Below are positions 1 through 18,910 of a DNA stretch of 64,000 bases, piece after piece. Under the pieces are notes generated by a model that was given only the letters and a program-made list of their open reading frames with translations, was not told the origin of the DNA and did no database searches. Position 1 is the stretch's first letter. Every line of letters begins with the position of its first letter. Position numbers and translations under genes: made by a program. This DNA is from an uncultured Gemmatimonadales bacterium (GTDB taxonomy: Bacteria > Gemmatimonadota > Gemmatimonadetes > Gemmatimonadales > GWC2-71-9), in assembly GCA_963739455.1 (NCBI GenBank), contig CAVUAK010000001.1, positions 1,728,001 to 1,792,000 of the forward strand, read 5' to 3'.

Positions 1-27
1 CGCCTGACCATGGGAAGGGAACAAGGC

Positions 28-2714: not shown

Positions 2715-2789
2715 TCGGGGCGCCCGGATTTGAACCGGGGACCTCCTGCTCCCGAAGCAGGCGCGATAACCGGGCTTCGCTACGCCCCG
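2715..2789 (-). tRNA. tRNA-Pro(CGG)
   Basis: Reverse complement CGGGGCGTAGCG...CCTGC-TTCGGGA-GCAGG...GGTTCAAATCC...GCCCCGA; CCA not encoded. Confidence 0.95.
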
Positions 2790-2799
2790 TACTACCTAG

Positions 2800-2873
2800 T
2801 GCGCCCAAGAGGACTTGAACCTCTAACCTTCTGATCCGTAGTCAGATGCTCTATCCAATTGAGCTATGGGCGC
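2800..2873 (-). tRNA. tRNA-Arg(ACG)
   Basis: GCGCCCATAGCTCAATTGGATAGAGC; anticodon arm TCTGA-CTACGGA-TCAGA; GGTTCAAGTCC. Confidence 0.95.
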
Positions 2874-2913
2874 GTCAGCGGACCGGCGTCCGCCCCAACA
2901 CAACTCCTCTACA

Positions 2914-2987
2914 TGGGCGGTACAAGGCTCGAACTTGTGACCTCCACGATGTCAACGTGGCGCTCTAACCAACTGAGCTAACCGCCC
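2914..2987 (-). tRNA. tRNA-Val(GAC)
   Basis: GGGCGGTTAGCTCAGTTGGTTAGAGC; anticodon arm CCACG-TTGACAT-CGTGG. Confidence 0.95.
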
Positions 2988-2991
2988 TACA

Positions 2992-3032
2992 GGCGGCAAG
3001 GCGGCAGGCATGCCGCCCTGCCGCCTTGCCGC
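2992..3032. repeat. Inverted octamer array (GGCGGCAR) hairpin in tRNA spacer
   Basis: GCGGCAAGGCGGCAGG-catgccgc-CCTGCCGCCTTGCCGC, a perfect 16-bp stem. Confidence 0.85.
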
Positions 3033-3040
3033 ATTCGAAA

Positions 3041-3114
3041 TAGCGGGGGTGGGATTTGAACCCACGACCTCCGGGTTATGAGCCCGGCGAGCTACCAGAC
3101 TGCTCCACCCCGCG
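3041..3114 (-). tRNA. Initiator tRNA-fMet(CAT)
   Basis: CGCGGGGTGGAGCAGTCTGGTAGCTCG; anticodon arm CCGGG-CTCATAA-CCCGG with three G-C pairs; unpaired C1:T72. Confidence 0.95.
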
Positions 3115-3149
3115 ACGCTGCCCGATGTTCCGGGCGATATTCCCTGGAG

Positions 3150-3222
3150 AGCGGGAAACGGGACTCGAACCCGCGACCCCAACCTTGGCAAGGTTGTGCT
3201 CTACCAACTGAGCTATTCCCGC
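3150..3222 (-). tRNA. tRNA-Gly(GCC)
   Basis: GCGGGAATAGCTCAGTTGGTAGAGC; anticodon arm CAACC-TTGCCAA-GGTTG. Confidence 0.95.
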
Positions 3223-3314
3223 TTGACGGAAGCGGATTGTAGCGCGCGACCTGCGCCGTCCGCAACCGTTTTTTCCAGCTTCGCCGCGACGCTGCTAACG
3301 CCCGGCGAACCGAG

Positions 3315-3387
3315 TGGAGGCGAGGGGGATCGAACCCCTGACCTCGTGAATGCCATTCACGCGCTCTCCCAACTGAGCTACGCCCCC
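3315..3387 (-). tRNA. tRNA-Ala(GGC)
   Basis: GGGGGCGTAGCTCAGTTGGGAGAGC; anticodon arm CGTGA-ATGGCAT-TCACG; G3:U70 pair. Confidence 0.95.
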
Positions 3388-11145: not shown

Positions 11146-12576
<1,431 letters not shown>

Positions 12577-12577
<1 letters not shown>

Positions 12578-15246: not shown

Positions 15247-16185
15247 GTGCGGTTCCATCCTCAGCTCCTCCTGCTGTCGGCCGTGTTCGCCGCGGCCTGC
15301 TCCGGCGACGACCCGGCCGCCGTCGACCCGTGTGCCCCGGGCCAGGGTGTTGCCGAACTGCGCCAGGACATCGTCTACCAGGATCTTCCCGGCGTCTCGT
15401 CGCGCGAACGGGTGCTCGACCTGTACCTGCCCCAGCGCGCTGCCAGCTGCGGGCCGGCCCCGATCGTCGTGTGGGTGCACGGAGGGAACTGGGGCGGCGG
15501 CGACAAGCTCGAGCTGAGCGACAGCATCGCATCGAAGCTCACCGGCATGGGCTACGTCCTGGCGAGCGTCAACTATCGGCTTTCGTCGCCGATATACACC
15601 GAGCACGACCCGCCGGTCACATGGCCGACGCATGCCAACGACGTGGCGGTGGCGATTGCCTGGCTGCGCCGCGAGGCGGCTTCATTCAACGGCGACCCGG
15701 CTCGCGTGGCGCTCATCGGCTTTTCGGCGGGCGCGCAGATCGTGGCCAACCTCGGCACCGACCCGCGGTACATGGCGAGCGCCGGGTTGGACATGGCGCC
15801 CATTCGATGCACGGCGTCCCTGGACGTGCGGCTCTATGACATTCCGCTGGCGGCCGAGCAGGTGCCACGGATCGTCCCGGAGCTCGAGACGATCTTCACG
15901 ACCGATCGCTACAACTGGACGCTGGCGTCGGCCACCCTGCAGGTGAAGGCGGGGTCTGCCCTCCGGCCGTTTTTCGTCCTGCGCCGGGGCGACGATGCTG
16001 GCCGTGTCGGGCAGGCGGACAGTTTCATGGCTGCGCTTCGGGCGGCGGGTGGCGTGGCGGTTACCACCACGGCGCTCGACTACCAGCACGACGACGTGAA
16101 TTTCACGCTCGCCGAGCCGTCCGACTCCATCGTGTGGCCGGCCCTGCGGCATTTCCTGCTCGACCAGTGCTTTCCCGCGAGCTAG
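15247..16185 (+). CDS. Alpha/beta hydrolase (HSL/BD-FAE-like esterase), lipoprotein
   Basis: Lipobox AAAC; LDLYLP, VWVHGGNW, SVNYRL, nucleophile GFSAG. Confidence 0.85.
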   Translation: MRFHPQLLLLSAVFAAACSGDDPAAVDPCAPGQGVAELRQDIVYQDLPGVSSRERVLDLYLPQRAASCGPAPIVVWVHGGNWGGGDKLELSDSIASKLTGMGYVLASVNYRLSSPIYTEHDPPVTWPTHANDVAVAIAWLRREAASFNGDPARVALIGFSAGAQIVANLGTDPRYMASAGLDMAPIRCTASLDVRLYDIPLAAEQVPRIVPELETIFTTDRYNWTLASATLQVKAGSALRPFFVLRRGDDAGRVGQADSFMAALRAAGGVAVTTTALDYQHDDVNFTLAEPSDSIVWPALRHFLLDQCFPAS

Positions 16186-17455
16186 AGAAGCTCGTCCAGC
16201 AGCGCCGCTGACCTCGCTGACGCACCGCGCTCTGCCTCCACCACGGTACGCGCCCGGCCCCCGGCGGCGGCGCGTGCCGGCTCATCCTGAAGCCAATTAA
16301 GCCACACCGTCGCGATGCCCTCGACGGTCCCCGCCGTGGCGGCCGCTCCATCCGCAATGAGGCGCCCGGCGTCCCGACTCTCCTGCCAGTGGGGCCCCAC
16401 GATCACCGGAAGGCCCCAGGCGGCCGGTTCGAGGACCGAGTGCAGGCCCGCGCGACCGAACCCACCACCGACGTAGGCCAGCCTTCCCCGCACCGTAGAG
16501 TGTGGCGAGTACCCCCAGCTCGATCCACGACGACCAGCGAAGTTTCGGCCGTGGCCTCACCAAGCAGTCGCGGTGACGGCGCACCGATCCTGCCCGCCGT
16601 GCGGAAGATCAGCTCGACCGCGTCCGGCGTTGGCTCGTGCGGCGCCAGGACGAGGCGCGCATCGGGCCGGCGAGAGCGCACCGACACGAAGGCCGCGAGG
16701 AGGATCTCTTCATCGACCGGCCAGGTAGACCCTGCCACGAGTGCAGGCGCTGCCGGGCGCGAGCAGCAGGTCGTTGCCGCGCGCGCGATCGACGCCGCGA
16801 AAGGACGCTGTCCGAGCGGGGGTCACCCGTGACCCGGATGCGCTCGCGCGCCACGCCCAGCCGGGCGAGGCGCTCGGCGTCGTCGTTGCTGATCGCGCCG
16901 GCAATCCTGAGCGCCTCATAGCCGGGCTTGAGGAGCGCGCGCGCGACTGGCCCCAGGCGCCCGCTCCCGGGGCGCACCGTGGCCGCCACGAGCGCCACCG
17001 GAATGCCGATGCGCGCGGCCTGGGTCGCCAGTTCAGGCCACACGTCGAGCTTGGCGAATACGAGGAGTGATGGGTCGAGTGCGTCGAGCGCCTGCGCCGA
17101 GGCACTCGCGGTATCGAACGGAAGGCAGTCGGCGATATCGGCACCGACGCCTGGCGGCGAATTTCTCCGCCGACGGGCTGAAGTAGGTGTACGCCACCTG
17201 CCAGTCCGGATGCCGTCGACGGAATTCGTCGATGACGGCCCTGGCCTGGAGTCCCTCGCCGACACTGGGCGCATGGAACCAGGCGAGCGGCCGCGCCGGA
17301 TCGCGGGACGTGCGTCCCCAGGCACTGAGCCGGTCGCCGACGCCGCGGCGCAGCCCGACGGTCCGGGCCAGCTTGTCATCGAAGAGGCCGCCGAGCGGTG
17401 CCAGCACGCTGGCGGTGCGCAGCAGCGCGCGATAGGCGAGGGAAGTGCGTGGCAC
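16182..17455 (-). CDS. waaA: 3-deoxy-D-manno-octulosonic acid (Kdo) transferase; several frameshifts
   Basis: WFHAPSVGEG, LPFD, DVWPEL, VTGDPRSD, AGSTWP, LAPHEP, AYVGGGF...HSVLEPAAWG. Confidence 0.9.
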
Positions 17456-17537
17456 GCTCCAAGGTCGCCGCACGGCGCGTCCCGGGTCAACGCCAGGACG
17501 GTTGCGGGCTGGCGCGGCGCCTTGCTAGCTTGAAATC

Positions 17538-17720
17538 ACGTTTCCGCCCGATGTCTCACCCTGAGCGAAGGAGGTGATCCGTTGCCAAGTAGCGACAGTT
17601 GCATCAGGGGCTCGAGGGCAAGCGATCGCCTGGTGGCGCGCTGAACTCGCCGGGACTCGACTGAGCCCCATGACAACGAAACCGCGCCGCCTCCCCCCGG
17701 GGAAGCGGCGCGGTTTGGCG
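17538..17720 (+). ncRNA. Candidate structured small RNA / small-ORF transcript carrying a perfect complement of the 16S 3' end
   Basis: Upstream TG-c-TAGCTT -10 (17523-17531); AAGGAGGTGATCC at 17568-17580; 20-codon TTG ORF 17582-17644; nested stems; terminal hairpin 17679-17716. Ends approximate. Confidence 0.55.
17679..17716. terminator. Intrinsic terminator, likely bidirectional
   Basis: AAACCGCGCCGC-c-TCCCC-cc-GGGGA-a-GCGGCGCGGTTT. Confidence 0.8.
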
Positions 17721-17727
17721 TTCACGA

Positions 17728-18910
17728 TCAGGCGCGCGCGATGCTGCCGGGCCGTCGTGCCGCCTTGACCAGGATGAGGCCGCCAATGAACCCGAGCAGG
17801 CCCAGGACCAGTATCCCAACGAACACCCGCCACAGTACCCGATCGACGAAGATCTCCAGCTGGTGCTCGAGCGTGTAGTCGATGAGACGCTGGGTCGCGG
17901 CCTCAGCGTCCTTGAGTGTGGCCACGCGCTCTTCGTGCAGCGCCTCAATGACTGTGGCTCGCTCGGAGGCAAGCCCCGCCAGGACTGCCTCGCGCTCGGC
18001 TGTAATCGCCTCCAGCACCGCGATACGCTCCTGGGTCACCGCCAGGAGCGCAGCGAGCCGCTCGCGCTCCACCATGTCGGGGGTGGCCTCGGCGACGACG
18101 CGTGAGCCGCTCCACTGACGTCGTGACGCGTCCCAATTGGCCCATCAGGCTGTCGATGACGGGCTGCTTCGCCATGTCCGCGATCAGCAGTTCGGCCTGC
18201 CATCGGGCTTCCTTGAGCATGGTCTGCTGGATCTGGTCGACGCGGCTGTCGAGGATGCGCGTCGTCAATTCCATGCTGCCGACCGCCGCCAGCGCCGACC
18301 GGTTTCCAGGAAGCGTCGCGGCAAGTGAATCCATGAGGACGTTGCCGCGCCCGACATACGGGCTCTTGATCGGGTGGGCGTCGGCCCACGGCTGCAGCGA
18401 GCTGAGCCATCCCGCGCGGCCACTTGGCGTGATATCGTCGGCATAGTTCAGCAGCCCCTCGAGAATGTCATCGAGGGTCGCGATCGCGAGCGGCTGCTGG
18501 GTACCGAACATCGTCCGGCCTTCACCGGTGGTGAAGAAGGCCTGGCTCTGGAGGGTGAAGAGGATGAGGGCCCCCAGGCTCACCACCGGGTCGCGGGCCA
18601 GGGCGGCGCTCTGCAGCTCGGAAGTGGATACGATCTTCCACTGGATCGCGTTGCGTCGCACCACCGGGTCGCGGGTCAGCGCGGCGATGGTGTCAGCGGT
18701 GCGCTCGATATGCTCCGCCGCATTCTGGGACCGGGCCATCACCGACAACCGCATGCCGTCCGGCGACTTCGTAATGCCGGTGCTCGCCATCACCGAGGGC
18801 TGCTCGGGCTTGGTGTTGAGTGAGCACGCGCCAAGCGCCAGGACGCACGCCAGCAACGCCGGCAGGGCGGGGGTGCGTTGCAGTAGGGCAGGGGCCCTGC
18901 GTGCGGTCAT
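17728..18910 (-). CDS. Hypothetical lipoprotein with coiled-coil region and C-terminal TM helix; frameshift near 18095
   Basis: Lipobox LGAC; helical body; C-terminus VLWRVFVGILVLGLLGFIGGLILVKAARR. Confidence 0.7.

Follow-up and report, generated by a model that had tools for sequence, protein, structure and literature searches.

Among the closest described systems are the rre small mRNAs, rreB of Bradyrhizobiaceae and rreR of Rhodobacterales (Hahn et al., RNA Biol 14:1353; PMC5711450). According to the part of that report available to us, rreB is 165 nt long and encodes 14 residues behind a 17-nt Shine-Dalgarno (SD) sequence and a GTG start codon; it co-sediments with 30S subunits, is weakly translated and is stabilised by removal of its start codon, and an ATG start is noted for the rre of Azospirillum. 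The Caulobacter sRNA CC2171 was validated by Northern blot in Methylorubrum, where it is expressed and has no known function (available portion of bioRxiv 10.1101/2022.01.24.477521). Toxicity of the small RNA CreT requires an SD, a start codon and a hairpin but not the peptide (PMC10097628, accessible part), and an extended SD of S. aureus is the subject of a partly accessible preprint (10.1101/2025.06.19.660503). Our literature search, largely confined to papers free of subscription, returned no follow-up that gives rreB or rreR a function, no paper linking CC2171 to rre and no report of such an RNA from Gemmatimonadota; the accessible portion of PMC10117765 makes no mention of rreB.

The window analysed here, a stretch of 64,000 nucleotides to which all positions refer, contains a locus that its sequence marks as a free-standing gene for a small folded RNA with a grip for the 16S rRNA tail and a tiny open reading frame (ORF). 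The parts of this unit are a promoter, a 13-nt complement of the 16S 3′ tail, a TTG start codon, 20 codons and a terminator hairpin, all on the + strand, and on re-reading the sequence we found every motif named by an earlier, sequence-only reading of this DNA in its place. That reading had proposed an Rfam/Infernal scan, in which no family reached its cut-off at the unit; at the gathering threshold, Rfam gave only six tRNAs in the whole window. These tRNA genes are clustered at 2715-3387 on the - strand. We consider it somewhat better than an even bet that the unit is an rre-type ribosome-docking mini-mRNA, a one-shot sensor or timer of initiation capacity that gates its own ribosome-binding site.

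Homologs were collected by three kinds of search. Blastn over 60 relatives yielded 13 true homologs, and a 17-nt pattern of SD, spacer and start codon matched in 123 of 401 genomes of the phylum, one match per genome, compared with none of the 401 for the reversed pattern. The unpublished genome G100 is part of this count and provides locus L047, and the unpublished G025 enters only the raw blastn tally. We examined 120 of the 123 pattern loci, added four blastn loci and dropped seven (L076-L081, L084) by eye as chance hits in coding sequences, with ORFs of 48 to more than 100 codons and without the conserved core, which left 117 loci in 117 genomes. A loose SD pattern, when run on 59 pattern-negative genomes, drowned in coding matches and gave way to a covariance model of the 5′ domain. 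This model recovered all four positive controls and, at E<1e-4, detected clear copies in 19 of the 66 further genomes searched. The model did not find the unit in 47 of these 66 genomes, including all six from other classes of the phylum, and the unit is therefore dispensable. Copies were examined in 136 genomes, all within the window's class.

Among the pattern-negative genomes, 27 had a waaA match, and in none of these 27 does the unit stand upstream of waaA, its neighbour in the window; four of them have it at another place. In G008, a 99% complete genome of the window's genus, waaA directly adjoins the next gene and the unit is missing there; it was also not found in several near-complete genomes. 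Neither blastn nor the model gave a second copy in the source genome (G000), apart from one weak 21-bit match. These searches indicate a unit that occurs across the class in single copy and has been lost repeatedly. The model gave 68-90 bits on records titled Gemmatimonadota, and we infer from this that the unit belongs to that phylum. Viral contigs, searched with a two-part pattern, and phage records contained no match.

The 13-mer (17568..17580), which forms an extended SD, was found twice in the 3.6-Mb source genome, in the unit and at the 16S 3′ end. Against the genome's own 16S tail it pairs over 13 nt by Watson-Crick pairs and over 15 nt with G-U pairs included. The duplex energy is -26.6 kcal/mol, compared with -17.3 kcal/mol for the best of 1043 crude ATG gene starts. 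An order-4 Markov model gives a chance expectation of 0.2 copies of the 13-mer per genome and 1.4e-5 per 250-nt spacer; one extra copy per genome is thus unremarkable, and the claim is carried by conservation rather than by rarity. The Watson-Crick complement spans 11-18 nt in the 117 homologs and, measured against the 16S tail of the source genome, reaches at least 16 nt in 13 of them. In a crude census of the source genome, SD-like 4-mers were present at 24% of first ATGs versus 9% of internal ATGs. Again by crude census, 5.8% of first ATGs but 0.4% of internal ones have a TANNNT box immediately before them, which lends some support to the earlier remark that many mRNAs of this genome are leaderless.

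Such a site might serve in bulk, as an RNA that holds or protects many 16S tails, for example during slow growth, with an ORF that only releases the subunits. The strongest anti-SD site among those tested (against the 1043 gene starts) and a genome that, by the crude census, is sparing in SD use would suit a decoy of this kind, as would the precedent of rreB, which co-sediments with 30S subunits and still binds ribosomes without its start codon. However, 20-fold overproduction of rreB caused no change in growth, and ribosomes far outnumber rreB (PMC5711450, in the available part for all these data). A pure decoy, moreover, needs no conserved frame, start codon or internal mask, and the unit has been lost in close relatives. 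We therefore regard this reading as unlikely. Of the decoy or parking role suggested by the sequence-only reading, binding of the RNA to 30S subunits is likely by analogy with rreB, whereas the bulk function is weakened by the overproduction result and the excess of ribosomes.

The ORF (17582..17644) opens with TTG at 17582, encodes MPSSDSCIRGSRASDRLVAR and has a stop codon ending at 17644; its frame and length are conserved, and the peptide seems to be of no apparent importance. It comprises 11-25 codons in 117 of the 124 pattern loci, the remaining seven being the chance hits in coding sequences, and since these were dropped by eye the resulting count of 117/117 is partly circular. In the +1 frame, 46 of 117 loci fall into the same range. 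All 19 further copies found with the model, without regard to an ORF, contain one of 14-22 codons. The start codon is TTG in 92 and GTG in 25 of the 117 homologs, at a fixed distance from the complement, and ATG in two of the 19 further copies. The distance from the start to the core is 31, 34 or 37 nt in all 69 distinct ORFs with the core motif; indels hence keep the frame, although only few independent indels lie behind these values.

The encoded residues behave differently. On 13 disjoint close pairs, pN/pS was 1.33, a ratio of small numbers (8 synonymous and 36 non-synonymous changes). The three codon positions are equally variable, the 'ASDR' core codons are almost without synonymous change, and in the 14- and 11-codon classes the core falls into a different frame. 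A loss of 1 nt in L116/L129 altered the peptide and left its length unchanged. The comparisons indicate that frame and length are under conservation and that the peptide sequence is not, and the earlier description as a small-peptide unit finds no support in the pN/pS value. The same data bear on the reading that the 20-residue peptide is the product of a small-protein gene of very low output, whose folds only limit synthesis. The conserved frame, length and stop agree with it, as do the translation of rreB and the conservation of RreB and RreR within clades (PMC5711450, available part); the pN/pS value, the equal variability of codon positions, the core without synonymous change and read in different frames by class, and lengths from 11 to 25 codons speak against it. 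In our estimate it is also unlikely and ranks next after the bulk decoy. As a separate observation, L059-L061 (genus g51) carry a 25-codon variant in which the stop codon lies inside the apparent terminator hairpin and the usual core is missing.

The peptides are hydrophilic, with a GRAVY value of -0.53 in the window and a median of -0.55 over the 117 homologs. This argues against a CreT-like toxin RNA or a type I toxin mRNA kept in check by folding and an antitoxin, even though a masked SD, a mini-ORF and constraint at the RNA level resemble Acinetobacter CreT (PMC10097628, accessible part). Antisense promoter-like sites were present in two of 114 loci versus 3.4 expected, in a test of patterns only; the unit is a single chromosomal copy beside housekeeping genes, viral contigs and phage records gave no match, and rreB did no harm when overexpressed, although the cloning of one full-UTR fusion failed (PMC5711450, available part). 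We hold a toxin to be improbable, and of two marks of a type I toxin-antitoxin system, a hydrophobic peptide and, by the pattern test, an antisense transcript, neither was found. The sequence-only reading had described a stand-alone, conserved, structured unit with a genuine short ORF that is not a type I toxin, and this much is borne out.

The σ70-type promoter (17502..17531) consists of the -35 element TTGCGG (17502-17507), an 18-nt spacer, a TG motif and the -10 element TAGCTT (17526-17531), and transcription would start near 17538. The arrangement TTG-16..19-TANNNT occurs at the matching distance in 60 of the 117 homologs compared with 1.0 expected from shuffles. At the other end, a terminator-type hairpin (17679..17716; -32.6 kcal/mol) is followed by a short U-tail. 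A stem of this type with at least 9 pairs is present in 114 of 117 homologs, four of the 114 being doubtful, and double changes were found at 10 of 11 consensus pairs. A scan of the window copy for consensus promoters and terminators found none of either; of the strong terminator announced by the earlier reading, the strong hairpin thus stands, but the U-tail is short and the consensus scan silent. Together, these features suggest that the unit has a transcript to itself, which runs from its promoter to its terminator.

The divergent neighbour outside the unit is waaA, encoding Kdo transferase (16182..17490, - strand; Pfam PF04413), and downstream of the unit, convergent to it, lie one or more ORFs without a Pfam family (17728..18910, - strand; ORF and Pfam scan), which in the window's genus leaves the RNA without a gene to lead. 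The window's waaA was matched by tblastn as five pieces spread over three frames, and atpD, the gene for ATP synthase beta (11146-12577, + strand), lies in two frames; these frameshifts are probably assembly indel errors rather than pseudogenes. We searched the fetched flanks of the homologs for waaA, rce1 and five other window genes. waaA is located upstream in 53 of 117 loci and a gene for an Rce1-like protease downstream on the same strand in 44 of 117, which would suit a role as leader peptide or attenuator for the protease gene or, alternatively, in regulating the divergent waaA. Against this, the downstream gene is convergent in the window's genus (six loci), the unit is inverted relative to its neighbours in L062, L069 and L070, and many loci have neither neighbour, for which reasons the unit is not a leader. 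In addition, waaA and rce1 adjoin without the unit in six genomes, and the example folds contain no antiterminator. Control of either neighbour is accordingly a very improbable role. At the unit-less loci L294 and L314-L318, the Rce1-like gene mostly starts a few bases past a TANNNT box, a position that suggests leaderless transcription from a promoter of the gene's own.

Folding and alignment point to three helices. P0 is a weak hairpin whose leader arm (17549..17562, including TCACCCT at 17556-17562) pairs with the SD's 3′ half as well as the start codon, leaving the 5′ end of the SD region in the loop. Its predicted probability is 0.78 in the window's nascent RNA up to 17585, and its column pairing is uneven across 50 homologs, with 15 to 50 of 45-50 copies paired per base pair. 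The leader motif GCCC (17546..17549) may form a pseudoknot with the GGGC bulge at 17616-17619: 199 of 200 cells are paired in alignment A1, with ten pair-keeping changes, all C to U, and no double change.

RNAalifold on 50 copies gave P1, a 13-pair helix between the SD plus start (17572-17586 in the window) and a near-invariant 15-mer within the ORF, which would act as an internal anti-SD/anti-start strand (17616..17631) and produce a masked state. In A1, comprising the 50 aligned copies, 644 of 650 cells of P1 are paired, without a double change. Since its 5′ side is fixed by the 16S tail, this is expected, and covariation neither proves nor refutes P1. Of 94 distinct ORFs, 82 form a stronger duplex than their shuffles do (p<=0.05); this holds across the 11-, 14- and 19-24-codon classes, but in the 25-codon class for only one ORF of three. 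L340 shows one A-U to G-C double change in P1, and among 18 further core-bearing copies an internal mismatch occurs in four within the lower half of the helix and in two within the upper half.

P2 is a rod (17598..17677) in which the ORF body (17598-17635) pairs with the 3′ UTR (17648-17677), its arms in the window being 17598-17613 and 17663-17677. The P2 core of 11 pairs is 94.9% paired and has double changes at seven of the 11, a result reached by none of 500 shuffles, although such shuffles overstate the case since the sequences are related and kinship inflates the figure. The count covers the core only, as subgroups align badly with one another in the outer helix (52.7% paired). As to the inner AGCG/CGCT and CGCC/GGCG pairs noted earlier in the rod, the window's minimum free energy (MFE) fold contains them, but they do not characterise the family.

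In the family, P1 and P2 share one strand and are therefore mutually exclusive. Predicted ensembles were calculated for 87 distinct RNAs (duplicates merged, seven omitted for a missing or doubtful terminator). When cut at the stop codon, 71 of the 87 formed P1 with at least 6 pairs; at full length, P2 with at least 10 pairs was formed in 71 of 87 and P1 was kept in 19. The 11-codon class mostly keeps P1 at full length (7/11). In these models the exclusion probably represents a switch between a masked and an open shape.

In the window itself, the folds with forced P1 (-85.4 kcal/mol) and forced P2 (-89.1 kcal/mol) differ by less than 4 kcal/mol, and the unconstrained ensemble favours a third fold in which the leader pairs with the ORF, P1 reaching at most 0.17 and P2 at most 0.35 at every length. 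Without its terminator this copy folds like shuffled sequences (z 0.02; with terminator z -2.9), and it lacks an apical hairpin of about 32 nt present in congeners. The third fold, the missing hairpin and the frameshifts of waaA and atpD in the assembly make the window copy a weaker example than its relatives. As the consensus scan was silent, the fold shuffle-like and no Rfam family above cut-off, the case for the unit rests on conservation.

The near-invariant strand could also act in trans, if it, or a fragment left after translation, paired with the start regions of other mRNAs. It is complementary to SD-plus-start sequences, and rreB gives rise to a 60-nt ORF-containing fragment found off the ribosomes (PMC5711450, available part). 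The strand is, however, accounted for by the SD and start of the RNA to which it belongs, and both predicted states have it paired; no other conserved single-stranded seed is apparent in the 3′ part, which makes a trans-acting sRNA quite unlikely.

A rod of about 185 nt recalls 6S RNA as well, and Rfam finds no 6S RNA in G000. At the unit, RF00013 gave no score even at E 10, but RF00013 stayed below its cut-off in all five relatives, so that the silence of this model means little. A better candidate is located elsewhere in G000, syntenic with a weak match in G057, and neither the SD and ORF nor the patchy loss fits 6S RNA. That the unit is a divergent 6S RNA is therefore scarcely credible. The match in G057 (G057:C1:936934-937096, L350) scores 22.9 bits with RF00013. 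The stretch in G000 (G000:C1:~1844505-1844660, L351) shares motifs with L350, has its own promoter-like site and terminator, and gave no Rfam hit at E 1; the genes downstream of both, judged by their translations, are presumably queD-folE. 6S RNA may thus be unrecognised across the phylum. SRP RNA, RNase P RNA and tmRNA were dismissed as identities of the unit, each being located elsewhere in G000. A link to bS21 was discarded too, as all 71 genomes examined have bS21, whether or not they carry the unit. Two bS21 (rpsU) matches were found in about 20 of these 71 genomes, e.g., G063, G066, G086, G023 and G045.

The sensor or timer outlined at the beginning is preferred to all six alternatives, the bulk decoy, the peptide gene, the trans-acting sRNA, the toxin, the leader and 6S RNA, which we rank in this order of declining probability. 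Selection would then favour the RNA itself and its translation, not the peptide. Transcription would proceed alone from the unit's promoter to its terminator, as conservation of both suggests. In the nascent RNA, P0 and then P1 would cover the SD and start, so that no ribosome could load; folding and conservation point this way. Once the 3′ UTR is finished, P2 would take over the anti-SD strand, so that the SD is left to the weak P0 hairpin, with a toehold on the 5′ side; P2 itself is backed by covariation, and the order of events is our reconstruction. A 30S subunit could then dock via 13-17 base pairs, and the over-long duplex together with the TTG or GTG start would give, as the rreB data suggest, a long-lived complex that is rarely translated. 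The elongating ribosome would open P2 up to the stop codon, freeing the anti-SD strand and re-masking the SD, whereupon the RNA would probably decay, similar to the start-codon-dependent decay of rreB. If these steps hold, the state and lifetime of the RNA would track the supply of initiation-competent 30S subunits. Comparative support covers P2, the frame and the promoter, whereas the order of events, the binding and the decay are drawn from analogy with rreB.

The 17-nt pattern was also scanned against GTDB, which gave at least 120 loci, 80 of them titled and grouped by record title. Among the matches listed, ORFs of up to 30 codons were present in 42 of 43 alphaproteobacterial, five of five unspecified proteobacterial, three of four betaproteobacterial, four of four Gemmatimonadota, four of four Acidobacteriota and ten of ten Planctomycetota loci, and in the single Fibrobacteraceae-titled and Krumholzibacteria loci. 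None of the three Firmicutes, four Bacteroidota-titled (one cut by the contig end) and one Saccharibacteria loci among the matches listed has a short ORF. A strong hairpin follows all but one of the listed short-ORF loci, by a raw count without a chance control. The internal mask was significant in 16 of 42 alphaproteobacterial and in none of ten planctomycete ORFs among the matches listed and is therefore not universal. Three Acidobacteriota-titled loci (L148, L166, L187) have a minimal form consisting of an extended SD, GTG, 6 codons and a hairpin 6-7 nt past the stop. In the Flavobacteriaceae-titled L170 and L204, the pattern lies within a conserved coding region that is open for 82-83 codons from GTG; such coding matches are a source of false hits for the pattern.

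By likeness of layout, the design appears to recur across several phyla. This raises the tentative, at present doubtful, idea that rre-type RNAs, rather than being odd small-protein genes, form a single class of ribosome-bound RNA switches that toggle between a masked and a 30S-gripping form and are widespread, recurring in Alpha- and Betaproteobacteria, Gemmatimonadota, Acidobacteriota, Planctomycetota and Krumholzibacteria. If this were true, cells would count, hold or release initiation-competent 30S subunits via an RNA that bears a 16S-tail copy of its own, a layer of translation control parallel to that of 6S RNA for RNA polymerase. The rre kind itself was known, having been described once (PMC5711450); the frame without peptide constraint, the self-complementary 15-mer and the competing helices are added here. 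The family points to selection on the RNA and its translation rather than on the peptide, and it offers a two-helix switch with named bases to mutate. Should the switch be real, an obscure observation would turn into a testable and possibly general mode of ribosome control.

Among known systems, CreT resembles the unit in being a small RNA with an SD, a start codon within a hairpin and a mini-ORF that matters by its nucleotides and not by its peptide. CreT, however, initiates strongly and efficiently, is toxic and is repressed by the CRISPR-linked CreA (PMC10097628, accessible part), whereas the unit shows no signal of an antisense partner and is single-copy and chromosomal. The rpsU mRNA of Flavobacterium has an exceptionally strong SD too, which serves to sense, on some of the ribosomes, what state the 16S tail is in, but it drives synthesis of a real protein, bS21, in an autoregulatory loop (PMC9976891, available part), and the ORF of the unit is tiny.

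CC2171 has a similar design. Its Rfam consensus (RF01867) opens with an extended SD that is followed by GTG and a Ser codon, and closes with a rod and a terminator, a layout like that of the unit. Its gathering score of 75 bits was reached in none of five genomes (window 10.6, best 27.5 in G101), the best match being the unit in G101, G045 and G023 and another place in G000 and G011. Two rre-like alphaproteobacterial loci (L184:591-760, L158:591-771), with an extended SD, GTG and a 25-codon ORF, pass this cut-off, and CC2171, listed in Rfam as a non-coding sRNA, looks like a further alphaproteobacterial rre type.

According to the available part of PMC5711450, rre and the unit are both stand-alone RNAs of about 165-220 nt with promoter and terminator, with an extended SD that runs to a non-ATG start and a short ORF, mostly with TCN as second codon; in both, a helix from inside the ORF masks the SD and start, and the ORF pairs with the 3′ UTR. 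Within the rreB ORF (Table S2 of that report), the anti-SD strand's 7-nt core is likewise present. A short conserved ORF on a stand-alone transcript (14-18 codons in rre) is found here with 20 codons in the window and 11-25 in the family, and the mostly double-stranded SD and start with a free 5′ seed are predicted for the family by P1 and P0, the window's MFE fold masking less. The start is GTG in rre and TTG in the window, at the same distance from the end of the complement.

Other features set them apart. The search for rre used a perfect complement of 16-17 nt, compared with 13 nt (15 with G-U) in the window. The unit shows no homology to rreB proper in sequence or peptide, the peptides being unrelated. 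At rreB-type loci, mask and rod coexist and no switch is needed, whereas in the unit both compete for one strand. Model R1 gave 25-27 bits on the rreB-type loci L161 and L221, in part from the shared SD, versus 68-90 bits on Gemmatimonadota-titled loci, and 16.8 bits on an ordinary Firmicutes gene start. The earlier label 'undescribed' may hold for Gemmatimonadota, from which our literature search found no report, but not for the kind, which is known as rre, in the available text from Alphaproteobacteria only, and whose 5′ design is that of CC2171. As the window lacks the 16-17-nt hallmark, we describe the unit as working like rre and do not file it as rreB: by analogy in its manner of working, it is a relative, from Gemmatimonadota, of the rre small mRNAs, which are little understood.
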